Virus record (IMG/VR): IMGVR_UViG_3300033232_000010
Location: 1 to 51,480 of that record
Direction: 5' to 3' (one strand)
Length of the DNA: 51,480 nt
From: a virus
Both the position numbers and the translations under genes were made by a program. Positions 9,320-38,837 of this stretch are shown piece by piece. How positions within the stretch are numbered: the stretch's first letter is position 1; the number at the start of each line of letters is the position of its first letter. The notes beneath the pieces were generated by a model. It was not told where the DNA came from. It was given only the letters and a program-made list of their open reading frames with translations, and did no database searches.

Positions 9320-12300
9320 ATGGCAACAGCAGGACTCTCCTTCGCTAACCCCCTTCTGGGGAAGGTAAACGTGGGGGAGGAGCCGAACCCATATGCGCCG
9401 TTCAACCCCGCGTCGAGCATCGGCCCTGGGGGGCTAGCACCTTCCGCCGCAGACATGGCTGTCATGGGGGCGTCCCTGTCTGCCCAAAGCCAGTTCACCA
9501 TGCCGGAGATGCGCAAGCCTGTGGGTATCGCATACAACGAAGACACCCAAGAGCTCTTTGTACAGGGTAATGTCTTCCGTGCGGACGACGCTGCATCTGC
9601 GCTTCAGTCCGAAGGCTTACTCAGTGGCCCCGGCACGGGGGTACCCACTGGAGGTAACTGGGTGCCGCTCTCAGAAGACGCGTATCGCCAGTACCTCCAG
9701 ACCATTCGCAACCCCAGCCTCGGGCGTTTGGCATCCAAGTCCTTTGGCCGCGGCGTCGACGTCATGCAGTCGCTTGGGGGGCGCGCGCTACAACTCGCTG
9801 GCGCTGAGGAACTGGGTGGGCGCATCGTTGAGCAACAGGAGACTGAGCTCGCCCGCACCGCGCCGTTTGAGCGGCAGTTCACCGACATCGAAAGTGGCCG
9901 TGATGCTGTCGAATGGTTCGTCGCCAACTTCGCGCAGCAAGGGCCCAACCTGATCGAGTCAGTCGTCACAGCAGGTTTGGGCTTCCTCGCGGGCACTGCC
10001 GCAGGCGGCCCGTTGGCAGGCGCAGGCGGGGCGATGGTGGGCCTCATGGGCAAGACCGCCTTCAAGGAGGCTATCATCGCCGCGGCCCACAAAAAGGCGG
10101 CAGGCGAAGTTCTTAACGCGGCTGAAAACAAGTTACTGAGGGAAGCCGCCGGTATCGCTGGTGCTGTTTCTGCGTCCTACACCCAGAACCTTGCCACGGG
10201 TGCAGCTGACATCTACGGCGAACTGCGTGAGCAAGGGGCCGACGCCGACGATATAGACGCCCGCCTGAAGGCGTTGGCTGGCTCCGTACCCTATGCTGTG
10301 CTGGAAACGCTGCCCGAGTTTTTACTGGCCTCGCGGCTGTTCAGTGGCGCGTTGGCCCCGTCTGCTTTGGCCGCTGGCGCGTCGCGCACCGCGCGTGGTG
10401 CTGAAATGCTCAAACGAGGCGCCATTGGCTTCGGTGTAGGCGGTACGGCAGAGGGGCTTACCGAGACGGGGCAAGAGGCCCTGTTGCTGGGTATCTCCGG
10501 CCAAGACCTGTCCTCGCCCGAAAGCGTCAACCGGCTGATCAACTCGTTTGCGGCTGGCTTTGGCGTCGGTGGTCCTCTTGGCGCTGCTGCCAACTTACGC
10601 AGCAAGCAACCGGAGAACCTGCTCGACCCGGCCAAGTCGCCCGAGCCGACCCCCGGGCGTGATCTGATTGTCCCCCCGGGCACCCAGCCGTCTGGCCCCG
10701 ATACGGACATGGGGATGCCGCTACGCGATGGTGCTGTACCTGCCCAAATGGAAGGGCCGATGGCACCTCCCGCGCTCCCGGCTCCCGCTGCGCCTATCGC
10801 CCCCGTCGGTGGCCCAGTCATCATGGCTGGCATGGGACCGGATGCCGCGTCTGTCACCCGGCAAGATGTTCTGCTGCGGCAGCAGGGCAACGTGCCCCCC
10901 GGCGCACCCGGTACCCAAGGGGTGCTGGACGTTTTCGGTGGCACCATCCCGGCGCAAGAATTGGCGGCGCGAATGCAACCGCAGGCCCCGTTGCCTGCAC
11001 TGCCAGAGCCGTCTCCAGCAGTAGCGCCCGATCCTCGGCAAGGGGCGCTCCAGTTCGCTGGGCCAGCTACCGCAGCAGGCCCTGTCAACACCCAGATGGC
11101 GAACCAGCTTCAGGCCATCCAAGACCAGATTCGCCGCCAGCGAGAGTTCGAAACAGCGCAGGCCCAGCAGGCAGCGCTCATCCAGCAACAGACTGATGCG
11201 CTTGCGCAGCAGAGTACAAATGCGCGCGACCTGTTCGCACTGCAGCAACAGCAAAACATGCAGCCTGCGCAGATGGCAACCGGGCTTCCCATGCGCCCAG
11301 CTGGCCCGACGCAGCCGGTGCAGCTGCCGCTGTTCCCGCGCCGCCAGCTTCCTGTTCCCAGCCGTGCCGAGGGCCTGCGCCGTGGGGTGGGTACGGGTTT
11401 ACCCTTAGATGTTGGAGAAACCCCGCAGATTGCCGCCCAGCGGCAGGTTCAAGTCCCGCTGTTTACCCAGCAGGGTGAGCCGTCTGTCGCTGCGTTGCGC
11501 GCTGCGGGGGTCAAAACCAAACTGCCACCAGCGGCACCCAAGCCGCGCGCTACCAAGACAGTTGGCGCCCGTGGTCTGCGGAAAGGGGCCAAAGTCGCCG
11601 CTATCGAGATCGTTCCAAAGGAGGCCGCGCTGAAAAAAAGTGAGCTCGCCCAAGCTGGACGCATGTGGCCGCAGTACGCCGATCCAAAAACCCAGCCCAA
11701 GTGGGCTGATCTGTCCGACGCGCAGAAGGACGCATGGCGCAAAATCGCCATCGGAGACCGTCGACCCAATATCGCGGCCACCGAGGAGATCGCCCCGCCC
11801 TTAAAAGGTAAAGCTCTCAAAGTCGGCGAAAAAGGGCTGACCCGGAAGCCTACGCTCCGAATCACGCAATACAACGACGGTACTTTTGGTATTGATTGGC
11901 TGGATCGTGACGGACGACCTGCTGTTGAACGTACGTACAAGACTGAAGCCGAAGCACGCGCTGCCGCGCTGAAACAGTTTGGATCGGGTGAGCCTATTCA
12001 AAATGAGGTCTACGTTCGTCCGCGGCCCAAGAAGGAGATCGCCCCGCCTCCAAAAGCTGAGGCAGCAACAGCCGCCGAGGTACTGGCCGAAGAAATCAGC
12101 GTAGCCGAGGCGACCACGGACATCCGCACGTTCCGCGACGCCATCCAGACGGTAATCAACTACGCGTTCTTTTTGGGCGAAGACACCAACGTCAAGAAGT
12201 TGGTGGATCAGGCACGCGCGTTCCTTGACCGCACCCAGTTCACCGATGCGCAGATGGCCGCGATGGACGAGGCATTTCTCGATGCTGTGCGGTACGAAAC

Positions 12301-15300
12301 GCAGCTGGAAGCCCAGTACAAGGGTGGCTCGCGCAAAGGCCAGCCGAAGCCGTGGTTCTCCTACGCTGTGGCCCGTGGCCTGCTGCCCAGCGTCAAGGCC
12401 CGCATCGTCAACATGCCCGCGCAGTACAAGACGAAAGCCGAGCCCGCCAGCGGTGTGATTGCCAAAGCCAAGCCGGTTGAGTCCAGCGTGGAAAAGATGA
12501 CCCAGAAGCCCGAAGCGCTGCTGGGTGAGTTGATTGGCGACCTCGTGGCCCGCATTCGTGAGTACGCCAAGCTGACCCAGCCCGTGAAATTCCGGGGCAG
12601 AACTTACGACAACGTAGTGGAGCTTGCCAAGCAGCTTTACGCTCGTGCTGACAAAGCTGGCCGCGAGTACATCGTGCGTGGCAACAAGCTCAAGGACTAC
12701 TTCAACGCTGACGGCTCGCCCAAGATGATCAAGTCCGGTGGCCGCTACATCATCACCACACAGACCATGACCACTGCCGAACAGCGCAAGCTGGAGCAGG
12801 AGCAGAAATCAGAGGCCAAGGCGGTCGCTGCTGAGCAAGCCGAATTGCGCGCTGCCGAGTTCGAGCGCGCCCGTATTGAGAAGGAGGGATTCCGTGAAGA
12901 AGACGCTTGGGATAGTACTGATGGTATGTTCTATCAAGCTGATGGAACCGAGAATCCCGCCACGCTGCCGGTTGGCCGCATCCGCCTACTGGTCAAGGGG
13001 TTCCTGAGCAAGTTGCGCATAAAGCCCAACACGTTTGTCTATAAAAACGTCGCAGACTTGAAGACGCGCAACCCTGATTTGTACCGCCGCGCTGCCGCCG
13101 CCCGCAAGGAAGGTGACTTCGACGCGACCAACGCCGTGGGCTACTCGTTTGGCCCCAATGTCATCGTATTCACTGACTTTGTTCGCACCGCGCAGCAACT
13201 GAAGTTTGTGCTGGCGCACGAAACGCTGGGGCACTTCGGCTTCAAGGGCGTGATCCCCAAGGCCCAACTCGACAAGGTGCTCAACCGCATCTATGACGTT
13301 GACCCCGACGTACAGGCCGCAGTTGATGCGATGGTAGCCAACCGTGGCATACCCAAGCTGGAAGCCATTGAGGAATATCTGGCTGACAACGCTGCCGAGT
13401 TGGACACGTCCATCGTGGCGCGCATCTGGAACGTCCTGAAGAATTTCCTTAACAAGCTGGGCTTTGAGTTCCAAGACGACGAAGCCCGCTACTTCATCAA
13501 CCTCGCCCGCAAGTATGTGCGCCAAGGCGATGCTGGCAACTTTGTCAACGCCCGTTCCATTATGGGCAACCTTGAAACCATTGCGCGCGATCAGGCCGAC
13601 GGGCGGTACGCCCGCATTTACGCCGGGGACATGGGGTCACGCGTATTCGCCGCAGGCGCGCTCAACCGCATGCACTCGTTTGGAGGCACTGGTGGCCTAC
13701 TCGGTTCAATGGAAGCCTTTGCCAAGGGCGTATTCGGCGCCCGCCGCGATGTACCCGGTACTGTGGGCCGCATCCTTGAGACAGTGCAGACGCTGGATAA
13801 CAAAGCCCGCCGCAGCTACGGCTTGAGCCAGATTTACCGCATCCTTGAGAAGCAACAGCAGTACGCACGCTCCCTGTTGTCCAACTACCAGCGCCTGACT
13901 GCGTTTACACATTCGCCCACCATTTTTGGGTTCGGTAAGGGCGTGACCGAGGAGCAAAAGCAAACCGCAGGCGAACTGCTTGCACGGGCTGCCTTGCTGC
14001 GGGCCGAGCAAGCCACTGATGACCATATTAAGTCTTTCGACCCGCTGGTTATTGTCGACGAGATGGGCAACGTCACCATTGACCAGACGGTTCGCCGCGA
14101 TATAGAGCGCGCCGGTTTCGTCACCGCCGAGGAGTTCCGCAAGGGCTTCGACATCAAGTACACCGACGGCAGCACCGTGCGGTTCCAGTTCGACGTGGAT
14201 GAGAAAAGCGCCGAATGGCGTGTCTACAACGAGATACGCAACGCCGTCAACGAAGCCGCCATCGACCTGCTGCTGTCAAACTACGAAGCCTCGCAGGCTG
14301 AGGCCAAGCGCGTGGGGGCAGACCTCAACAACAAGCGGCGTGGCACCAACGTGTTCACAGGGGAAGACCTCGCCGCCATCCGGCGCGCGGCCGCGATGTA
14401 TCAATCCAAGCGGTACGCAGGCAGTGACGTGGCGAACGCCGGGGTGGAGGTCAAGCGAAGCGCCGACAAAAACTCCGAGGAGTTCCTTGTTGCATTCGGC
14501 CGCGCCTTGTTCAACGATGACGTCTATGCTGTCTGGATGAAAGACCCCAATGCCAAGCCCGAGATTGCCAAAGACTTGGAGGAGTTTCTGAAGTCCGAAT
14601 ACGACGACCTCCGGGCCGCGCTGCCCAGCCTAAAAGCAAAAATCAAAAACGACAAAGAGTCGTTCCAAGTGCAGAAAGCCATCCGCGATCTGTTCATGTT
14701 CGACCTCCAGTCCAAAAACGCTGACTACTATGCCAAGCACACCATCCTTGGTTCCTACGTTCGGTTCGCCCGCCGCGGTACCGAGCAGGTGCGGCTTGTG
14801 GCCGTCGATGACCGCGGGAATCCAGTGGCACTGGACGAGAACATCCGCGCTGCGCTGCCGTACTTTCAATTCAACACCCGCCGTGCGGCGATGGAAGCGG
14901 CAGCAGAACTGGACAAGGAATTCGGTAGCGACAATGAATTCGTTCTGCTCGATGATCAGGGCAACGAAACCACTGTGAGGCTAAAAGTCGAAGTGTCCCG
15001 TACCCGGCAGTCTCCTGACTTGACGGAAGCCGTGAACTTCAACGAGTTTATCTACGTGCTCAACCGGCTCAACATCAACATTGCACCGGAAGCACGGGAA
15101 CGTATTGTCACGACGCTGACAAATCAAAACGCACGTGCGCGGAGCAACCTTCAGCGTTCTGGCACCGAGGGCTGGGACAAGGACGTGGTGCGCTCCGTGT
15201 CAGAGCATCTGGAGACCACTGCGCACGTATCGGCGAAGAAACTCTACCGCCACCGCCTCGACGACATCCTGCTCAACAATGCAAACTGGCTGGGCGACGA

Positions 15301-17167
15301 CCAGATGCTGGGGGACTTGAAGTCCGCGGTGGACAACGCGCAAACCGATGGGGAACGCGCACGCGCACAGCGGGCTTATGATGAGTACGCATACATGTAT
15401 CGCTACATGAAGGGTGTAGCAGGCGGCAACACCGTTACCATCGGCGGCAAGGAAATGCCCACGCTGGGGCGCGGTGAAGATTTCCGGGAGGAAGCCAAAA
15501 AGGTGCTTCGCTGGTACAGCGAGGCGACCAACATTACCGACTCGACCGAAGACCTTTTGTCAGGCGAAGTCGGTTCAATGCTCAAGCTGTCGGCCGTACT
15601 GATGCAACTGGGCGGTTCGGTCGCCACGGCCGTGGTCAACCTTGCCTCGCTAGTCACGCACTCAATCCCATACTTGTCGTACTACAACTCCGCCCGGGGC
15701 TACGGCGGCGGGTACGGCGAAGTTAAGGCCACGACTGCACTGTGGCGTGCCGCGAAAGACCTCAAGAATGCCAACCTTGCTGATGCCGCCTTTCTTGAGG
15801 GGATGCTGCGTGACGGTACCTATGACCGCTTCGGCCTGACAGAAGACGAAGCCCAGTTCTTGCTCGACCAGACCGAGCAAGGTACATTGCAAGCTGCGCA
15901 GTTCAACGCGCTTGTGGGCACTGCACGAGGCAAAATATTCAGCAACAAAGCACAATTTGCGGTGCGGGCGTGGATGTCGGCCTTCTCCTACACTGAGCAG
16001 TTCAACCGGCGCACTACGGCGCTAGCCGCATACCGGATGGAGAAAGAACGCCTTCGCGCACAGGGTATCACCGACGAGCAGCAGATCAACAGCGAAGCCG
16101 CAGAAGTGGCGCGGGTAGCCGTGAACTCATCGCAGGGTGAGTACGGCATGTTCAACCGCCCCGGAATGGCACGTGGCAAAGTGCTGCAGTATGTTTTTGT
16201 GTACAAGCAGTTCGTCATCGTGACAGTACAGTTGCTGCGTAACCTGCCACCTAAAGGGCAAATGCTGATGTTAGGGATGCTGTTGCTGGCGTCGGGCCTA
16301 CGGGGTCTGCCGTTTGCTGAGGACATCTTTGACATTGTGGACACCATCGCCCAGACGCTGGGGCTGAAAATGGGCAGCATTGAGAAAGAGATCGCTGAGT
16401 TCATAGATTCTGTGGCCCCCGGCATGACACCATATGCGATGCGCGGGGTGCTTGACAGAATGACTGGGGGCACAATGTCCACCCGCTTAGGTATGGGTGA
16501 TCTAGTGCCACTTACCGGCGCGGCCAAGGCTGGTGCTGACCCAGCGCGCGAGGCAGCTAACTTTGCGGGCCCAGTGTTCGCGGGTATTTCCGGGCTGGCC
16601 GGTATGGCTGGTGGTTTCGCCAAGTACGGGGCTGAAGTGGTGGGTCTGCGCGACGACGTGACTTCGATCAGTGGCATCATGCGTAACTCGCCTATCGCGG
16701 CTTTCCGTGCGATGGCCGACGGGCTGGCCTTCCTCGACAGCGGGATGATCACCAACAACCGGGGGCAAGTTGTGGCGCGTGAGGCACCGTACCACGTGAT
16801 CCTCGCGCGAATGCTGGGCTTCTACCCAGCCATCGCCACCGAGCAGAACGACATTGTGCGGATGTCCAAGGACGTGACGAGCTACACCAAGGCGATCAAG
16901 GCAGACTACGTAGCGGCCTACGTCAAGGCCAAGCTGGCGGGGGACACTGAGCGGATGCAGGACGTGCTGTCTGATGTGCAGCAATGGAACGAAGACGCCA
17001 GAGGCACTGGGCTGGAGATTCCTTCGTTCGCGCGCTCTGCCAACCGCGCCGCAATGGAGGCATCCCGCCCCACAGTAGCCCGGTACCTCAAATCCGCGCC
17101 GCGGCAGATGCGGCCTGAAACGATTGAGATGCTACGGCTCCACGGGCTCGAAGACGAGGTTCGTTAA
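9320..17167 (+). CDS. Giant (2615-aa) virion-associated, polyvalent-type protein with an HExxH zincin motif.
   Basis: A single uninterrupted ORF with SD 'gaggtaa'. 'FVLAHETLGHFGFKG' lies at 13217-13234. A long Pro/Ala/Gln low-complexity tract spans about 10600-11600. The C-terminal part is hydrophobic. It is the last gene of the virion module. Confidence 0.8.
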   Translation: MATAGLSFANPLLGKVNVGEEPNPYAPFNPASSIGPGGLAPSAADMAVMGASLSAQSQFTMPEMRKPVGIAYNEDTQELFVQGNVFRADDAASALQSEGLLSGPGTGVPTGGNWVPLSEDAYRQYLQTIRNPSLGRLASKSFGRGVDVMQSLGGRALQLAGAEELGGRIVEQQETELARTAPFERQFTDIESGRDAVEWFVANFAQQGPNLIESVVTAGLGFLAGTAAGGPLAGAGGAMVGLMGKTAFKEAIIAAAHKKAAGEVLNAAENKLLREAAGIAGAVSASYTQNLATGAADIYGELREQGADADDIDARLKALAGSVPYAVLETLPEFLLASRLFSGALAPSALAAGASRTARGAEMLKRGAIGFGVGGTAEGLTETGQEALLLGISGQDLSSPESVNRLINSFAAGFGVGGPLGAAANLRSKQPENLLDPAKSPEPTPGRDLIVPPGTQPSGPDTDMGMPLRDGAVPAQMEGPMAPPALPAPAAPIAPVGGPVIMAGMGPDAASVTRQDVLLRQQGNVPPGAPGTQGVLDVFGGTIPAQELAARMQPQAPLPALPEPSPAVAPDPRQGALQFAGPATAAGPVNTQMANQLQAIQDQIRRQREFETAQAQQAALIQQQTDALAQQSTNARDLFALQQQQNMQPAQMATGLPMRPAGPTQPVQLPLFPRRQLPVPSRAEGLRRGVGTGLPLDVGETPQIAAQRQVQVPLFTQQGEPSVAALRAAGVKTKLPPAAPKPRATKTVGARGLRKGAKVAAIEIVPKEAALKKSELAQAGRMWPQYADPKTQPKWADLSDAQKDAWRKIAIGDRRPNIAATEEIAPPLKGKALKVGEKGLTRKPTLRITQYNDGTFGIDWLDRDGRPAVERTYKTEAEARAAALKQFGSGEPIQNEVYVRPRPKKEIAPPPKAEAATAAEVLAEEISVAEATTDIRTFRDAIQTVINYAFFLGEDTNVKKLVDQARAFLDRTQFTDAQMAAMDEAFLDAVRYETQLEAQYKGGSRKGQPKPWFSYAVARGLLPSVKARIVNMPAQYKTKAEPASGVIAKAKPVESSVEKMTQKPEALLGELIGDLVARIREYAKLTQPVKFRGRTYDNVVELAKQLYARADKAGREYIVRGNKLKDYFNADGSPKMIKSGGRYIITTQTMTTAEQRKLEQEQKSEAKAVAAEQAELRAAEFERARIEKEGFREEDAWDSTDGMFYQADGTENPATLPVGRIRLLVKGFLSKLRIKPNTFVYKNVADLKTRNPDLYRRAAAARKEGDFDATNAVGYSFGPNVIVFTDFVRTAQQLKFVLAHETLGHFGFKGVIPKAQLDKVLNRIYDVDPDVQAAVDAMVANRGIPKLEAIEEYLADNAAELDTSIVARIWNVLKNFLNKLGFEFQDDEARYFINLARKYVRQGDAGNFVNARSIMGNLETIARDQADGRYARIYAGDMGSRVFAAGALNRMHSFGGTGGLLGSMEAFAKGVFGARRDVPGTVGRILETVQTLDNKARRSYGLSQIYRILEKQQQYARSLLSNYQRLTAFTHSPTIFGFGKGVTEEQKQTAGELLARAALLRAEQATDDHIKSFDPLVIVDEMGNVTIDQTVRRDIERAGFVTAEEFRKGFDIKYTDGSTVRFQFDVDEKSAEWRVYNEIRNAVNEAAIDLLLSNYEASQAEAKRVGADLNNKRRGTNVFTGEDLAAIRRAAAMYQSKRYAGSDVANAGVEVKRSADKNSEEFLVAFGRALFNDDVYAVWMKDPNAKPEIAKDLEEFLKSEYDDLRAALPSLKAKIKNDKESFQVQKAIRDLFMFDLQSKNADYYAKHTILGSYVRFARRGTEQVRLVAVDDRGNPVALDENIRAALPYFQFNTRRAAMEAAAELDKEFGSDNEFVLLDDQGNETTVRLKVEVSRTRQSPDLTEAVNFNEFIYVLNRLNINIAPEARERIVTTLTNQNARARSNLQRSGTEGWDKDVVRSVSEHLETTAHVSAKKLYRHRLDDILLNNANWLGDDQMLGDLKSAVDNAQTDGERARAQRAYDEYAYMYRYMKGVAGGNTVTIGGKEMPTLGRGEDFREEAKKVLRWYSEATNITDSTEDLLSGEVGSMLKLSAVLMQLGGSVATAVVNLASLVTHSIPYLSYYNSARGYGGGYGEVKATTALWRAAKDLKNANLADAAFLEGMLRDGTYDRFGLTEDEAQFLLDQTEQGTLQAAQFNALVGTARGKIFSNKAQFAVRAWMSAFSYTEQFNRRTTALAAYRMEKERLRAQGITDEQQINSEAAEVARVAVNSSQGEYGMFNRPGMARGKVLQYVFVYKQFVIVTVQLLRNLPPKGQMLMLGMLLLASGLRGLPFAEDIFDIVDTIAQTLGLKMGSIEKEIAEFIDSVAPGMTPYAMRGVLDRMTGGTMSTRLGMGDLVPLTGAAKAGADPAREAANFAGPVFAGISGLAGMAGGFAKYGAEVVGLRDDVTSISGIMRNSPIAAFRAMADGLAFLDSGMITNNRGQVVAREAPYHVILARMLGFYPAIATEQNDIVRMSKDVTSYTKAIKADYVAAYVKAKLAGDTERMQDVLSDVQQWNEDARGTGLEIPSFARSANRAAMEASRPTVARYLKSAPRQMRPETIEMLRLHGLEDEVR

Positions 17168-28365: not shown

Positions 28366-29496
28366 TTACTCTCCTATTTCAATGATTTCACCAAAAGGTG
28401 CGCTGCTTAAATCCGTCGTGACCCATAGTACCGGCGCGTCGGGCTGATCCCCGAAGCTACCGCAGCACAGGTCGGTCAGGAACACGATTGCAACTGGGTT
28501 GATGCCCAGTTCGATGATCTTGGCAAAGACTGGCGCAAAGTCAGTGCCACCCCCGCCGTGGGGCTTGATGTCAAGGTCGTCATGCTGCTCGTAAGACTCC
28601 ACATGGCTGACCTCGTTGTCGAAGTACATCACATGGATACGCTCCGGCATCAGGTCTTCTTTGACGCGGCTGACCTCGGCGGCAAATTGGTTGAGCGTAT
28701 GCTGGTCAATGGAGCCGGAACAGTCCACTGCGAACAGCACCTCGCCCATTGCCTCGCCGCTTACACTGGGTAGGTACAGCCCTTGCGGCAGGAAGCGGCG
28801 GTTGAACCGGGCAAACGAACGGCTGTCACTGCGGGCTCTGATAAGGAACCTCTGAAGCACCTCGCGCCAGTCAACTTTTGGTTGCAGCACCTCGTTGACA
28901 AGACGTTGCATATTGGCTGACATCTTGCCCATCATCTTGGCGGCTTGCGCCGCTTGGGCTACCTTCACTTTCCACTCGGCCTGCTGCTGCGCTTGCTCAG
29001 CAGGGTCACCAGAACCGTCCTCGCAGTTGTCCATCAAATCGCCAACGCCCTTGTCTTCGTCCTGCTCTGGCAAGATGTTGTAGATGCCCTCACTGGTGCC
29101 GTGGCCAGCGTTGTATATGCTGGGGTCATGTAGCCCCACAGCAGGCATTCGGCCGATGCCTTCATCGACCAGCAGCTTGTTGATCACGTAGTCTGCGGCC
29201 ATGTTCCACCTCCGCGCCTGCCGTTCCCCGCGCCGGAAGGTATGCTCCATCATGGGGTGGAAGCACTCATGGGCCACAAGGAACTTGACCTCCTCATCAG
29301 TCAGGTCGGCCACGAACTCGGGGTTGAACTTGACCCGCTTGCCGTTGGTCGCGGCAGTGGGGATGCTATCGTCAAGCTCAAAGGGCATGTTCAGGGCGAT
29401 GGTGCCGACGAAGGGATGCTCCAAGATTAGAGCGGTCTTGGCCTTCGCCAGTTTGGTTTGAACCTTTTTCAGGTCAATGGTCGCAGTCGCCATCAT
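28366..29496 (-). CDS. VWA-domain protein with an N-terminal putative zinc metallopeptidase (DUF2201-like / CobT-like).
   Basis: 376 aa. 'LVAHECFHPMMEH' (HExxH) and 'FAVDCSGSI' (DxSxS MIDAS). Confidence 0.75.
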   Translation of the reverse strand: MMATATIDLKKVQTKLAKAKTALILEHPFVGTIALNMPFELDDSIPTAATNGKRVKFNPEFVADLTDEEVKFLVAHECFHPMMEHTFRRGERQARRWNMAADYVINKLLVDEGIGRMPAVGLHDPSIYNAGHGTSEGIYNILPEQDEDKGVGDLMDNCEDGSGDPAEQAQQQAEWKVKVAQAAQAAKMMGKMSANMQRLVNEVLQPKVDWREVLQRFLIRARSDSRSFARFNRRFLPQGLYLPSVSGEAMGEVLFAVDCSGSIDQHTLNQFAAEVSRVKEDLMPERIHVMYFDNEVSHVESYEQHDDLDIKPHGGGGTDFAPVFAKIIELGINPVAIVFLTDLCCGSFGDQPDAPVLWVTTDLSSAPFGEIIEIGE

Positions 29497-35587: not shown

Positions 35588-36073
35588 ATGGACAACCTAC
35601 CGCTGAACCACACCAAATGGAACGACAGGCTGGCCTTCGACGTGGCGCTGACCCTCGAAGGCAGTGGAGAGACGCTTCAGGAGCTCATGGGGCGCCACAA
35701 CATCACGGCCAACGACATCCTCGTGTTCAACGCCGACCCCATCTTCTTGAAGAAGGTGGAGCACTACCGCACCGAGGTGCGCGACAAGGGGCTGACGTTC
35801 AAGCTCAAAGCCCGGGCGCAAGCTGAGGAGTTGTTGACGACCTCATGGCTGCTGATCCACGATCCAGCTGTTTCCCCGGCCGTGAAGGCCGACCTGATCA
35901 AGTCCACTGTGAAGTGGGCGGGGTTGGAGCCCAAAGACAGTACTGTCCCCGATGGCGGTAGTGGTGGTGTCAAAATCACCATCAACCTTGGCCCGAACCC
36001 CGGCGACGCGCGCACCATTGAAGCCCCTGTTTACGAAGTTGAAGCCGAAGATGCAACTGCCCTCGAATATTGA
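35588..36073 (+). CDS. Putative terminase small subunit.
   Basis: 161-aa ORF immediately upstream of the large terminase. Assigned by position only. Confidence 0.45.
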   Translation: MDNLPLNHTKWNDRLAFDVALTLEGSGETLQELMGRHNITANDILVFNADPIFLKKVEHYRTEVRDKGLTFKLKARAQAEELLTTSWLLIHDPAVSPAVKADLIKSTVKWAGLEPKDSTVPDGGSGGVKITINLGPNPGDARTIEAPVYEVEAEDATALEY

Positions 36074-36260
36074 AGACCTGTTCACCCAAAATTTCAATGG
36101 GTTTCGCGCGTTCAAACTGCGCAGTGCAAGCGAAGCCATCGCGGTGGAGAACGAGCTCGCGCGGCAGGAACGTTCGTTCCAGACTAGGATCACACGGAGC
36201 AAAAAACACGGGCGGGAGTTTGTGATTCTGCTGGTCGAAGGAGCTCCCGCATGGCTTTAG
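36051..36260 (+). CDS. Possible small protein bridging the terS and terL genes.
   Basis: 69 aa from MQLPSN ('FRAFKLRSASEAIAVENELARQERSF' looks protein-like). It overlaps both neighbours, and its ribosome-binding site is weak. Confidence 0.3.
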   Translation: MQLPSNIEDLFTQNFNGFRAFKLRSASEAIAVENELARQERSFQTRITRSKKHGREFVILLVEGAPAWL

Positions 36261-38503
36261 ATATAAATTACACACCGCCGCCAACCGGCAAGCGGTTCAT
36301 GGCCTCGGACGACAAGATGCGCGTGATCGTCGGTCCTGTGGGCTGTATCGCTGGTGATACCCTTATCCAAACGGAGGAGGGGGCCATCCCCATTGAGCGT
36401 ATAGATCGGCCAGTGCGCGTTCTAAGTTGGGACGAGACAGGTCAACGATACCGGCTTTCTCCAAGTGGCGGTGCGTTCCCGAAAGGTAGGGACTATCTGT
36501 ACCGAGTGACAACGCTGCGAGGAGAATTTGATGCACTCGGACTTCACCAAGTGCTTTGCGCTGACCGTAGATATCAACCTGTTGAATCTTTGCGCCCCGG
36601 TCAGTCCTTGCACCTATGTTCTTTACCCCCTTCGGCGACCACCTACGCGGCCCTGTTGCAGTCTGAGCCAGATGCTCACCATTTGACGCAAACAGCCGTA
36701 GATTATCTGGCGCGTTATGCAGAGTCAGCCCGTCTACGTGGTCAACCACTTCTTCAGGAGACAGGTAACGGCCCAGCTTTTTCTCCATTACGAGGCGGTG
36801 CTCGCAGATTATTTTCCCAGCTCTGTTCGGGCGCTGCCTTGCGTGCGGGTGGTCTGTTGGGGCTGTCACAAGTACATAGCCGTCAAGGCCAACTCGCCTT
36901 CCACACGCATACTGGTGGTTGCGTGGCCCCGGTTGAGCGCCTTCGCTCAGACGATCCAGATCGAATTTCTTCATCACCCTCCGGACATATCGAGGGGAAA
37001 GCCCAACAATTTCTGCGATTTCTACGGACGAGCGCTGCCCGTTGGAAAGTTCGATTATTTGCTTTGTGTTCTCGTTCATACATAAGCTCCTTATCCGACG
37101 GGACCATTATCTCTATAGAGCGTTTGCCCGGCAAGCAGGTTTATTGGGATATGCAGGTTTTGGATACGAATAACTACGTGACTGCGGATGGTACTGTCCA
37201 TCACAACAGCGGCAAGAGCGTGACCTGTTCGTTCGAGGTGGTGCGGCGCGCCTCGATGCAGAAACCCAACGCCAACGGCATCCGCAAAACCCGTGCGGCT
37301 GTCGTGCGGGAAACTGCCCGCCAGTTGCAGGACACCACGATCAAGACCTTCCTTGACTGGTTTCCTCCGGGGCAGTGTGGGCAGTACATGCGTACCACCA
37401 AGACGTACTTTTTCAAGGTGGGGGATGTGGAGTGCGAGATTATGTTTCGCGCCCTCGATGACGCTGACGACGTGGCCAACCTGAACTCGCTGGAATTGAC
37501 TTTCGCTTGGTTCAACGAATGCCGAGACATCCACCCCGACATTGTGGACGCCATGTCCAAACGTATTGGGCGATTCCCCAGTGCAAAGGACGGCGGGCCG
37601 ACGTGGCACGGCATGTGGGGTGATACCAACCCGCCGACGATGGACGGGTGGTGGTATTACCAGATGGAAGGGCTTGACCCCAAGGATGGTGTCTCGCCCA
37701 ACGACAACGGCTGGGCGGTGTTCAAGCAGCCCTCCGGGCGCAGCGCGTACGCCGAGAACATCGAGAACTTGCCCGAGGGGTACTACGACACCCAAGGGCG
37801 CTCCGAGGAGTACATCCGGGTTTACATCGATGGCGAGTACGGGCTGTCCTCCGCCGGTATGCCCATTTACAAGTACTTCCGGGTTGACTACCACATGGGC
37901 AAAGAGCGCCTGCGGCCCATTATTAACGGGGTGCGGCCCATCGTCATTGGCATGGACTTAGGGTTAACCCCAGCAGCCGCGATCGGTCAGCTTGACCCCC
38001 GCGGGCGGGCGCTGATACTTGACGAATGTGTCTCGTTCGATATGGGCATCCAGCGGTTTGTCCGCACCATGCTCAAGCCCTTGCTGTACGAGCGGTTTCC
38101 CGGTGCCCCTGTGCTGGTGGTTGTCGACCCTGCGGGGGTGCAGCGGGCCCAGACGGACGAGCGCAGCGCGGTGGACATCATCAAAGCGGAGAACCTCAAG
38201 GTCATCCCGGCCAAGACCAACAACGTCTCGGCGCGCATCAACGCGGTGGACGAGTACCTCATGCGCCAAGTAGACGGCGACCCGGCGTTTCTCGTCGACC
38301 CGCGCTGCACGCAGCTCAAAGCCGCCATGATGGGTGGGTACCGGTACAAGCCCAAGGGCGACGGGGACATCGACAAAAACAAGCACTCCCACGTGGCTGA
38401 AGCCCTTCAGTACCTCATGCTCCATATTTCGAGCGCCAGCGAGGGGCAGCAGATGGGGCAGCGCCGGGAAATAAAACGGGTACCCGCGCTTGGATGGACG
38501 TGA
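36251..38503 (+). CDS. terL: Terminase large subunit precursor (contains an intein; the spliced product would be about 462 aa).
   Basis: Walker A is split: 'VGPVG | intein | SGKS'. Walker B-like 'LTFAWFNECRD'. Nuclease region 'VIGMDLGLTPAA'. Confidence 0.9.
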   Translation: MALDINYTPPPTGKRFMASDDKMRVIVGPVGCIAGDTLIQTEEGAIPIERIDRPVRVLSWDETGQRYRLSPSGGAFPKGRDYLYRVTTLRGEFDALGLHQVLCADRRYQPVESLRPGQSLHLCSLPPSATTYAALLQSEPDAHHLTQTAVDYLARYAESARLRGQPLLQETGNGPAFSPLRGGARRLFSQLCSGAALRAGGLLGLSQVHSRQGQLAFHTHTGGCVAPVERLRSDDPDRISSSPSGHIEGKAQQFLRFLRTSAARWKVRLFALCSRSYISSLSDGTIISIERLPGKQVYWDMQVLDTNNYVTADGTVHHNSGKSVTCSFEVVRRASMQKPNANGIRKTRAAVVRETARQLQDTTIKTFLDWFPPGQCGQYMRTTKTYFFKVGDVECEIMFRALDDADDVANLNSLELTFAWFNECRDIHPDIVDAMSKRIGRFPSAKDGGPTWHGMWGDTNPPTMDGWWYYQMEGLDPKDGVSPNDNGWAVFKQPSGRSAYAENIENLPEGYYDTQGRSEEYIRVYIDGEYGLSSAGMPIYKYFRVDYHMGKERLRPIINGVRPIVIGMDLGLTPAAAIGQLDPRGRALILDECVSFDMGIQRFVRTMLKPLLYERFPGAPVLVVVDPAGVQRAQTDERSAVDIIKAENLKVIPAKTNNVSARINAVDEYLMRQVDGDPAFLVDPRCTQLKAAMMGGYRYKPKGDGDIDKNKHSHVAEALQYLMLHISSASEGQQMGQRREIKRVPALGWT
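36344..37207 (+). mobile_element. Intein (288 aa) inserted in the TerL P-loop.
   Basis: It starts with Cys ('CIAGDTLIQTEEG'), has a block-B-like 'GLHQVL' and ends '...VYWDMQVLDTNNYVTADGTVHHN' followed by Ser. Excising it recreates GPVGSGKS. Confidence 0.85.
36363..37079 (-). CDS. HTH + HNH endonuclease encoded antisense inside the intein.
   Basis: 238 aa. AAGGAG lies 7 nt upstream of the ATG. HTH 'SSVEIAEIVGLSPRYVRRVMKK'. HNH core 'CEHRLVMEKKLGRYLSPEEVVDHVDGLTLHNAPDNLRLFASNGEH'. Confidence 0.8.
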   Translation of the reverse strand: MNENTKQIIELSNGQRSSVEIAEIVGLSPRYVRRVMKKFDLDRLSEGAQPGPRNHQYACGRRVGLDGYVLVTAPTDHPHARQRPNRAGKIICEHRLVMEKKLGRYLSPEEVVDHVDGLTLHNAPDNLRLFASNGEHLAQTATGPRRWSPKGVKNIGARTDRGAKIQQVDIYGQRKALGEVRVHQILLAALSLGTDSPYLSGTHRHLEKAGIVDLSRPNLERALADLYAQWGWPPPPFG

Positions 38504-38562
38504 TATGATTGCATTGCTGCTTTCCGCAGTTTCTGTTGTCTCCTCCCCGCCTCCGCGGGTTG

Positions 38563-38600
38563 CCCCCAAGCGCATTTTTGCCTTGGGGGTTTCTTTTTGT
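38563..38600 (+). terminator. Rho-independent terminator after terL.
   Basis: Stem cccccaag/cttggggg (8 bp), followed by 'TTTCTTTTTGT'. Confidence 0.75.
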
Positions 38601-38629
38601 TTGACACGCTGTATACTTGCTGGTAGAAC
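38601..38629 (+). promoter_or_regulatory. Sigma70-like promoter: TTGACA-N17-TAGAAC.
   Basis: Read directly. It follows the terminator immediately and lies 26 nt upstream of the ATG at 38655. Confidence 0.5.
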
Positions 38630-38654
38630 CCTGTTGCAAGGGTAAGGAGCGGCC

Positions 38655-38837
38655 ATGAAAATGTCGAAGTCAAAGAGCAAACCGTACACAGCCATCTCGG
38701 ACAATCCCAAGCTGGACACTACTGGTATGGCTGGCAAACCGATGGATTACTGCGGCGCAGAGGGCGAGTACAAGCCGCCTCCGATGACCGTGATGCAGAT
38801 GATGGATAGGCACAAAGCAATCCAACCGAAGAAGTGA
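38655..38837 (+). CDS. Hypothetical small protein (60 aa).
   Basis: SD 'taaggagcggcc' precedes the ATG. Confidence 0.6.
   Translation: MKMSKSKSKPYTAISDNPKLDTTGMAGKPMDYCGAEGEYKPPPMTVMQMMDRHKAIQPKK

Follow-up and report, generated by a model that had tools for sequence, protein, structure and literature searches.

We analysed a stretch of viral DNA of 51,480 nucleotides (IMG/VR record IMGVR_UViG_3300033232_000010, positions 1 to 51,480; hereafter the window). Its terminase large subunit (TerL) gene is interrupted, within the Walker A (P-loop) codons, by an in-frame intein whose opposite strand encodes a helix-turn-helix (HTH)-HNH endonuclease. We interpret the two as a mobile intein-plus-endonuclease unit, a reading to which we assign a probability of about 0.78 and in which homing itself is inferred. 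The evidence is computational and comprises the anatomy of the locus, selection on two reading frames, homology of the Hint and HNH parts, intein-less alleles, and the presence of the unit in unrelated TerL proteins. Antisense endonucleases in contiguous inteins are already known, while an antisense HNH enzyme that overlaps the splicing domain deeply appears to be new. The nuclease family, its abundance and the deep, doubly constrained overlap with the splicing domain are what distinguish the arrangement.

An intein splits the Walker A motif of TerL

Excision of positions 36344-37207 from the 750-codon TerL open reading frame (ORF) joins GPVG to SGKS and restores the Walker A motif, as a first-pass annotation of this DNA, made from the letters alone, had proposed. 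The insert starts with CIAGDTLI and ends with DGTVHHN, after which SGKS follows. The precursor matches the PHROG 2 terminase large subunit family (E 1.4e-24) and Pfam Terminase_3 (27.1 bits, above the cut-off), and both matches are restricted to residues after the insert. The C-extein, searched against 1.8 billion representative proteins, returned 3245 relatives, many of them about 460-490 amino acids (aa) long with a match starting near residue 30. Homologues with an uninterrupted Walker A motif are among them: P0129 (56% identical) reads GPVGSGKS and P0132 reads GPVGSGKT, which places the insertion directly after GPVG, again as proposed. The intein-less P0129 allele was also recovered as DNA, with the junction GGGCCTGTCGGT/TCTGGTAAATCT (here and below, a slash marks the insertion point).

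We built a Hint profile from 16 family members and searched it against solved structures. The profile matches the mini-inteins 1mi8 (DnaB intein, E 1.7e-5), 4o1r (replicative DNA helicase intein, E 4e-5) and 7cfv (Spl DnaX mini-intein, E 2e-4), and likewise gp41-1. Profile positions 2-92 correspond to the N-terminal halves and positions 241-291 to the C-terminal halves of known inteins. Since both halves align at the ends of the insert, the ~150 residues between them occupy the usual place of an intein endonuclease domain. In the alignment of 16 rows, Cys1 and His68 of block B never vary, His287 and Asn288 are present in at least 90% of the rows (row P0121 ends before both), and every junction examined has Ser or Thr at +1. 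The splicing blocks noted at the outset are thus borne out. The insert carries the N-terminal nucleophile, block B His, C-terminal His-Asn and Ser/Thr +1 of a class-1 intein, lies in frame in a conserved host motif and has intein-less alleles among its homologues. Judged by its sequence, the insert is an intein in the TerL P-loop, and it probably splices, with indirect support from the split Walker A motif and from the selection for an open sense frame described below.

Between the Hint halves, residues 101-245 are 57% Ser, Arg, Leu, Gly or Ala, versus 35% in the C-extein, and the spacer read in the sense frame matches no Pfam, NCBIfam, PHROG or PDB family. This agrees with the initial description of a Ser/Arg/Leu/Gly-rich middle section in which no LAGLIDADG, HNH or GIY-YIG motif was seen. 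A degenerate in-frame nuclease in the spacer is ruled out by the codon-position pattern described below together with the absence of family matches. The GC content of the intein element is 0.535, versus 0.611 in the C-extein, and third-position GC (GC3) is 0.54 in the HNH gene, versus 0.81 in the C-extein, so that the AT-richer codons first noticed by eye are real. The composition of the element is foreign to the TerL host gene.

It is conceivable that the insert is removed as RNA, by an intron with a homing endonuclease gene, or that TerL is made in two pieces by a split intein or fractured gene. GenBank and PGAP do annotate relatives with a truncated TerL and a separate HNH gene, and fractured terminase genes with split inteins exist (PMC2677866). 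Against this, the catalytic residues of the Hint domain are conserved, and selection keeps the sense frame free of stops. That frame runs unbroken in every locus: the window and all 88 related loci described below contain a single open frame, which is not the structure of a split intein or fractured gene. Furthermore, no Rfam family, group I and II introns included, matches positions 36000-37600 at E<=1, so an intron is not supported, and an intron or other RNA element at the insert is rejected. We regard removal as RNA and assembly from two pieces as highly improbable.

The opposite strand encodes an HTH-HNH endonuclease

The 238-aa ORF reported on the complementary strand, from 37079 down to 36363, is present and encodes the HNH core attributed to it. 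It matches Pfam HNH_3 at 27.5 bits, above the 24.8-bit cut-off, and PHROG 10730 'HNH endonuclease' at E 2.8e-55 over residues 6-229. Residues E93, H94 and R95, D113, H114, D116 and G117, H121 and N122, N126, N133 and H136 of the core are invariant in 35 sequences; with the curated threshold exceeded and the catalytic residues conserved, the protein belongs to the HNH_3 family. Its proposed N-terminal HTH finds its best match in HTH_29 (E 5.9e-5; 23.5 bits versus a 28.1-bit cut-off), and AlphaFold2 (AF2) predicts helices at residues 3-11, 18-25 and 29-38.

The AF2 model of the HNH protein, built on 35 sequences, has a predicted local distance difference test score (pLDDT) of 88 and a predicted template modelling score (pTM) of 0.74. 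Compared with BFVD, the model gives 31 structural matches at E<=1e-3; among those that carry a name, phage HNH or homing endonucleases are in the majority. A Foldseek search of the whole model against the PDB gave no match at E<=0.001; besides I-HmuI (1u3e; probability 0.77, E 0.43), only weak HTH matches were returned. In a collection of 5.8 billion proteins the HNH protein has 691 relatives at E<1e-5; the 120 listed range from 226 to 255 aa in length, with identities of 58% or more. Megablast with the region as query gave no match among GenBank phages. An antisense ORF arisen by chance is ruled out by these relatives, the invariant catalytic residues and the wobble pattern described next.

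Both reading frames are maintained by selection

We redrew the synonymous codons of each HNH protein with the codon usage of its own extein and counted stops in the sense frame. In 11/11 divergent loci no stop was observed where 3.7-9.7 were expected (P(0) <=0.005 each). For the window locus, about 6 sense stops are expected given its HNH protein and 0 are seen (P(0) <1/2000).

We also computed diversity by codon position from 68 distinct sequences, aligned codon by codon. In 22/22 sequences checked, the first sense position faces the first antisense position, with antisense position 2 corresponding to sense position 3, and antisense position 3 to sense position 2. Over HNH residues 1-150, diversity is 0.21-0.48 at antisense position 1, 0.13-0.40 at position 2 and 0.43-0.69 at position 3; in the HNH core, wobble diversity is 0.43-0.68 versus 0.13-0.44 at positions 1 and 2. 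This is ordinary purifying selection on the HNH frame, and the sense amino acids opposite are free to vary. Likewise, diversity in the spacer peaks at the second sense codon position, the wobble of the HNH frame. Outside the overlap, in intein codons 1-15 and 271-288, the pattern is that of the sense frame (position 3, 0.49-0.63; positions 1 and 2, 0-0.29). The last dozen HNH residues are constrained only via the sense frame, diversity over residues 226-238 being 0.32, 0.53 and 0.23 at antisense positions 1, 2 and 3. Over residues 181-225, opposite Hint-N codons ~22-66, all three positions are restrained (0.17-0.21, 0.17-0.29 and 0.18-0.25). The suppression of variation at sense position 3 inside the overlap is evidence of selection on the C-terminal part of the HNH protein itself. 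Both reading frames are maintained by selection.

The first-pass annotation had not remarked that the HNH ORF extends beyond the endonuclease loop into Hint-N, nor that the arrangement is widespread. The ORF stops 19 nucleotides (nt) into the intein, and its last ~90 codons run antisense through Hint-N, of which codons 7-99 are also read on the opposite strand. As the ORF thus runs back through almost the whole of Hint-N, this stretch is truly dual-coding: ~280 nt are read both ways, and over ~135 nt purifying selection acts on the two strands at once. The antisense frame over Hint-N is open in 10/10 loci (P(0) 0.001-0.25 each), and AF2 predicts helices there at HNH residues 170-177, 179-192, 203-208 and 216-230, with a block-mean pLDDT of 87-95 over residues 171-230. 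The overlap is a small natural model in which antisense dual coding, and possibly the de novo birth of a domain, can be studied.

Opposite the C-extein, too, there are several antisense ORFs of considerable length (up to 267 aa), for example 37091-37894 and 37964-38737, both on the minus strand. They are probably by-products of the high GC3 (0.81), and ORF length alone is therefore weak evidence within this window. The commonness of such ORFs in this GC-rich window, as well as the faster divergence of inteins than of exteins in close TerL relatives, could suggest that the ORF on the antisense strand is decaying or arose by chance, and that the intein is an immobile, vertically inherited mini-intein with a junk loop. 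We consider this barely credible, given the purifying selection on the HNH frame seen in the wobble pattern of 68 distinct sequences, the 691 full-length relatives, the invariant catalytic residues, the confident structure model, and an HNH ORF that is intact in 88/88 loci.

A C-terminal extension that may have been born by overprinting

Free-standing HNH relatives correspond to the query only in the HTH and HNH core (residues 3-131 of the query) and stop ~25 residues past the core. Those compared are Mycobacterium phage Thibault gp148 (188 aa; 32% identical over query residues 15-131) and the HNH protein of MW202481 (214 aa; 29% over residues 3-129). The intein HNH family has, by comparison, ~100 extra C-terminal residues, which lie antisense to Hint-N. 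Since Hint-N is homologous with other inteins, we infer that the HNH ORF was extended by overprinting a pre-existing Hint-N. The helical C-terminal part (~170-230) may have arisen de novo in this way from the antisense strand of Hint-N and have become a selected domain, perhaps a DNA-binding one, although we put this forward tentatively and at somewhat less than even odds. If true, splicing domain and nuclease share nucleotides and are physically inseparable, an unreported route by which a homing endonuclease gene and an intein become one obligate unit. It would also illustrate cleanly, in nature, how one folded domain can be born from the antisense strand of another.

A mini-intein of 135 aa of the same Hint family occupies the same P-loop site in P0140 (L091 1501-3291; aa 33-167) and has neither the HTH nor the HNH core. 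Its antisense frame keeps ~100 open codons that resemble the C-terminal part of the HNH protein (..GDVRLRAILLAALKFGIDSPFLLGTHRHLEK..), and it looks like a deletion derivative. We compared it with full-length inteins for a relaxed constraint at sense position 3 after loss of the HNH core. The differences are spread evenly over the three codon positions (19, 18 and 17 in the closest pair), the nearest relative being only 73% identical.

The unit recurs in unrelated TerL families

We collected 88 related loci from two IMG/VR scans, a scan of cellular genomes, one contig, and the phage loci L001 and L002. The cellular-genome scan contributed three loci, all from metagenome-assembled genomes, which we suspect to be binned phage contigs. 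In 88/88 loci the HNH gene lies antisense within an uninterrupted TerL frame, with the intein at the P-loop GxxG/S[GTSA]K[ST]; the integrity of the antisense ORF, which the original proposal had made a point to check in relatives, holds throughout. The antisense-HNH intein arrangement is common, not a one-off.

Among GenBank phages, tblastn returned two groups of HNH proteins: seven Ymer-group Pectobacterium phages together with Dickeya phage Setonix (53-54% identity), and Pseudoalteromonas phage PHS3 (44% identity). In both Ymer (L001, OP748252.2) and PHS3 (L002, KX912252) the HNH gene is antisense in an open TerL frame, with the insertion at AGFG/TGKS and GGAG/SGKS, respectively. Compared with the window, the Hint halves of these two phages are 46-49% identical and the HNH proteins 42-54% identical, and their C-exteins have no significant BLASTP similarity to that of the window (E 0.099 for L001 and 0.48 for L002). 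Similar Hint and HNH parts beside C-exteins that share no detectable similarity indicate that the unit moved between unrelated TerL families, always to the P-loop, and the distribution points to horizontal transfer. Across 66 distinct spliced junctions, DNA conservation is confined to first and second codon positions, GGnCCnnTnGGn/nnnGGnAAn. The presence of the unit at the P-loop of unrelated TerL families supports the published idea that nucleotide-binding motifs are shared landing sites for host-protein switching.

An unrelated Hint family (C[LW]..[DH].E[FY]L ... N/SGKS) is found at the same Walker A site among TerL relatives. It is a mini-intein in P0126, whose extein is 80% identical to that of the window, and in P0130; in P0145 and P0180 it carries an in-frame LAGLIDADG-like motif. 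A second, unrelated Hint family at one site indicates that the P-loop of this TerL family is an intein hot spot. Two other TerL relatives, P0131 and P0137, have an intact P-loop and an intein near the C-terminus instead (..HSHV/CF...SN/CE..), and many further C-extein relatives match in two stretches, which suggests further insertion sites.

Predicted expression of the HNH gene and a model for homing

A promoter for the HNH gene is probable on the minus strand, as predicted from a TTGCCG-17-GATAAT sequence that is the sole sigma-70-like match in 35900-37700. The position matches TTGAC-N17-TAnnAT in 10/14 loci, against a background of 0-1.1 matches per kb per strand, and the divergent PHS3 locus carries TTGACA-17-GATAAT (11/12 matches). 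The AAGGAG reported 7 nt upstream of the HNH ATG is found at 37092-37087, and most loci have GGAG-like motifs upstream of the start codon at a similar distance. AAGGAG also precedes TerL (36235-36240), at a similar distance from its own ATG. A hairpin downstream of the HNH stop is a tentative terminator, since hairpins are no more frequent here than in shuffled sequence.

In the model that we propose, the 288 inserted codons would be translated within TerL, and the Hint halves would fold and excise the insert by class-1 splicing, yielding GPVGSGKS. The ~140 codons between the halves would be a mere spacer that must remain stop-free. A second gene on the complementary strand, equipped with a promoter and a ribosome-binding site of its own, would encode the HTH-HNH endonuclease. 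During co-infection this enzyme would cut TerL alleles that lack the intein, in or close to the P-loop codons, and repair from intein-bearing genomes would copy the whole unit. Indirect evidence for such homing comes from the existence of alleles with and without the intein, the occurrence of the unit in unrelated TerL families and its foreign codon composition. As the Hint-N stretch encodes two selected proteins, nuclease and intein would not be easily separated by recombination.

A different view is that the HNH protein is a working nuclease but not the homing enzyme of this intein, being either associated with packaging, as in HK97-like cos phages, or a free-standing selfish gene that merely settled in a safe place and has another target. 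HNH endonuclease genes often adjoin terminase genes (PMC3592412), and the window holds a second, unrelated HNH gene. Nevertheless, all 88 members of the HNH family that we found sit inside the intein and never beside TerL, intein-less TerL relatives manage without the HNH gene, and the HNH gene moves together with Hint between TerL families that are unrelated. As an I-HmuI-like protein of ~235 aa with HTH and HNH_3 parts, its product also resembles phage homing endonucleases. The HNH proteins associated with cos are smaller, ~100 aa. We judge a role other than homing of this intein to be unlikely.

Slightly less probable still is that the HNH enzyme targets nuclease-less mini versions of the same intein, nuclease and intein being two nested selfish elements. 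The mini-intein P0140 could represent such a target, and Gosselin et al. propose that arrangements of this kind originate when free-standing endonuclease genes invade inteins (bioRxiv 10.1101/2025.01.02.630785). P0140, however, keeps a remnant of the antisense HNH C-terminus and so resembles a deletion derivative rather than a naive target. Moreover, the HNH ORF overlaps Hint-N in every lineage, so that both move together, and the unit is present in unrelated TerL families that share only P-loop codon DNA.

Several observations weigh against a mobile, self-expressed unit. Single-sequence Pfam Hint matches lie below threshold and occur only at the two ends of the insert, and the AF2 model of the intein, built on 3 sequences, has a pLDDT of 34. 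Structure prediction was thus informative for the antisense protein (pLDDT 88) and unusable for TerL residues 32-319, which is why the Hint assignment rests on sequence profiles of moderate E-value together with the catalytic residues. The number of promoter matches in the window equals the shuffled expectation, and conservation of the promoter could partly follow from conserved sense residues (..VK.., ..TI[IV]S..), which makes the promoter probable rather than proven. The still open and similar antisense frame of the P0140 mini-intein means that conservation of the HNH C-terminus may partly be imposed by Hint-N. The related loci are not independent, so fewer evolutionary events lie behind them than their counts suggest. 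Within the TerL lineage to which the window belongs, exteins are 76-90% identical and Hint parts 54-83%; an intein more diverged than its extein in close relatives is as compatible with long vertical residence or turnover as with active homing. Splicing, transcription and translation of the HNH gene, its cleavage target and homing are predictions from computation.

Relation to known inteins and homing endonucleases

The original proposal held that no antisense endonuclease nested in a contiguous intein had been described. This part does not stand, as antisense LAGLIDADG and VSR-like cases are published (bioRxiv 10.1101/2025.01.02.630785); what stands is a TerL P-loop intein with a selected, apparently self-expressed antisense HTH-HNH gene. 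The authors of that preprint (Gosselin, Arsenault and Gogarten) describe 63 actinophage inteins with non-canonical endonucleases, namely in-frame HNH, antisense LAGLIDADG, antisense VSR-like and frame +3 EndoVII-like, and name the terminase large subunit as one of four host proteins of non-canonical inteins. They credit the first antisense LAGLIDADG cases, in the Synechocystis DnaX intein and a Chloroflexus SpoVR-like intein, to Gorbalenya 1998 and Gogarten 2002, and add actinophage minor-capsid inteins of their own. The window locus belongs to this class in the sense of Gorbalenya 1998 and Gosselin 2025, in that a separate opposite-strand ORF for the nuclease is nested in an unbroken intein ORF. 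A secondary ORF outside the splicing domain, called typical though not defining for non-canonical inteins, is not what we find here.

Like the antisense-LAGLIDADG inteins, the present intein is uninterrupted and has no endonuclease in its in-frame middle; the nuclease ORF lies on the complementary strand, and the two have entered divergent exteins jointly. Unlike theirs, the nuclease is of the HTH-HNH type, so that HNH joins the nuclease families serving inteins from the opposite strand. The hosts are phages that infect Pectobacterium/Dickeya and Pseudoalteromonas, as well as environmental viral contigs, rather than actinophages or cyanobacteria, and the arrangement is common: it counts 691 HNH protein clusters in public data, cultured phages of these bacteria and many environmental viral contigs. 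With the actinophage antisense VSR-like (EDxHD) and frame-shifted EndoVII-like inteins it shares a phage intein with a separately encoded nuclease, and the argument of Gosselin et al. that terminase is essential, and the intein must therefore still splice, applies equally here (bioRxiv 10.1101/2025.01.02.630785). Nuclease fold and Hint lineage differ from those inteins, and their survey lists HNH only in frame.

Fractured genes (Dassa et al. 2009, PMC2677866) also have an endonuclease gene of free-standing type in the place of the intein endonuclease, a terminase among the examples. In that case host gene and intein lie in two ORFs, splicing is in trans and the nucleases are GIY-YIG or Vsr-like, whereas the sense frame here is continuous and selected to remain so. 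ShiLan (Arsenault et al. 2025, PMC11855218) likewise hides an HNH ORF in a non-host frame, inside a stop-free in-frame insertion; there, HNH and host gene share a strand and a Hint domain is not detectable, whereas here the HNH is antisense and splicing blocks are present. The I-HmuI-like and free-standing phage HNH_3 homing endonucleases resemble the window's protein in their HTH and HNH_3 core and in the structural matches, and differ in lacking the extension antisense to Hint-N. In the literature searched, we found no report of an antisense HNH in an intein or of this TerL P-loop family. The paper describing phage Ymer mentions neither intein nor HNH.

Features of the locus and its annotation

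Coordinates of features at the TerL locus (window positions; the promoter, Shine-Dalgarno sequence and hairpin are predictions).
Feature	Position	Strand	Remarks
TerL precursor ORF, 750 aa	36251..38503	+	N-extein, intein and C-extein share a single frame
N-extein, 31 aa	36251..36343	+	ends ...VIVGPVG, first half of Walker A
Class-1 intein, 288 aa, precursor residues 32-319	36344..37207	+	Cys1 ... His-His-Asn, then Ser+1
N-terminal Hint half, blocks A and B, codons ~1-99	36344..36640	+	profile alignment, codon-position diversity
Sense-frame spacer, codons ~100-239	36641..37060	+	open frame, amino acid sequence unconserved
C-terminal Hint half, blocks F and G, YWDMQVLDTNNYVTADGTVHHN	37061..37207	+	profile positions 241-291; position 3 most variable
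C-extein, 431 aa	37208..38503	+	starts SGKS, second half of Walker A
HTH-HNH endonuclease gene, 238 aa and stop	36363..37079	-	nested antisense in the intein
N-terminal HTH, HNH residues 1-45	36945..37079	-	HTH_29, HTH_28, HTH_24, all below Pfam cut-offs
HNH catalytic core, residues ~61-140	36660..36899	-	HNH_3, invariant residues, wobble diversity
Doubly constrained zone, HNH residues 181-225 opposite Hint-N codons ~22-66	36405..36539	-	all positions 0.17-0.29
Sigma-70-like promoter, TTGCCG-17-GATAAT	37106..37134	-	ends 26 nt before the HNH ATG
Shine-Dalgarno AAGGAG	37087..37092	-	7 nt upstream of the HNH ATG
Weak terminator-like hairpin	36275..36291	-	downstream of the HNH stop

Loci of this kind are annotated inconsistently. 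PHS3 is given a truncated TerL and a separate HNH gene, Ymer a 754-aa 'hypothetical protein' and no HNH, and in L024 (JADBKY010000113; NCBI metagenome-assembled genome GCA_014894715.1) a truncated 491-aa TerL is called beside the HNH gene. Gene callers that keep the HNH ORF and truncate TerL account for the difference in retrieval, the intein sequence finding 5 database proteins and the HNH protein 691. Because the error is systematic, terminase-based phage phylogenies and intein surveys miss or distort such genes.

The window corresponds to an entire JGI contig of 51,480 bp. Its other genes are those of a tailed-phage-like genome, and encode a portal or head-tail adaptor, a major head protein, an internal virion protein, a DNA polymerase, a helicase and a primase-helicase. 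The second, unrelated HNH endonuclease gene lies in the replication module (28369-29496, minus strand; 376 aa; PHROG 1314, E 5e-101). A 2615-aa ORF stands among the virion genes (9320-17167, plus strand).

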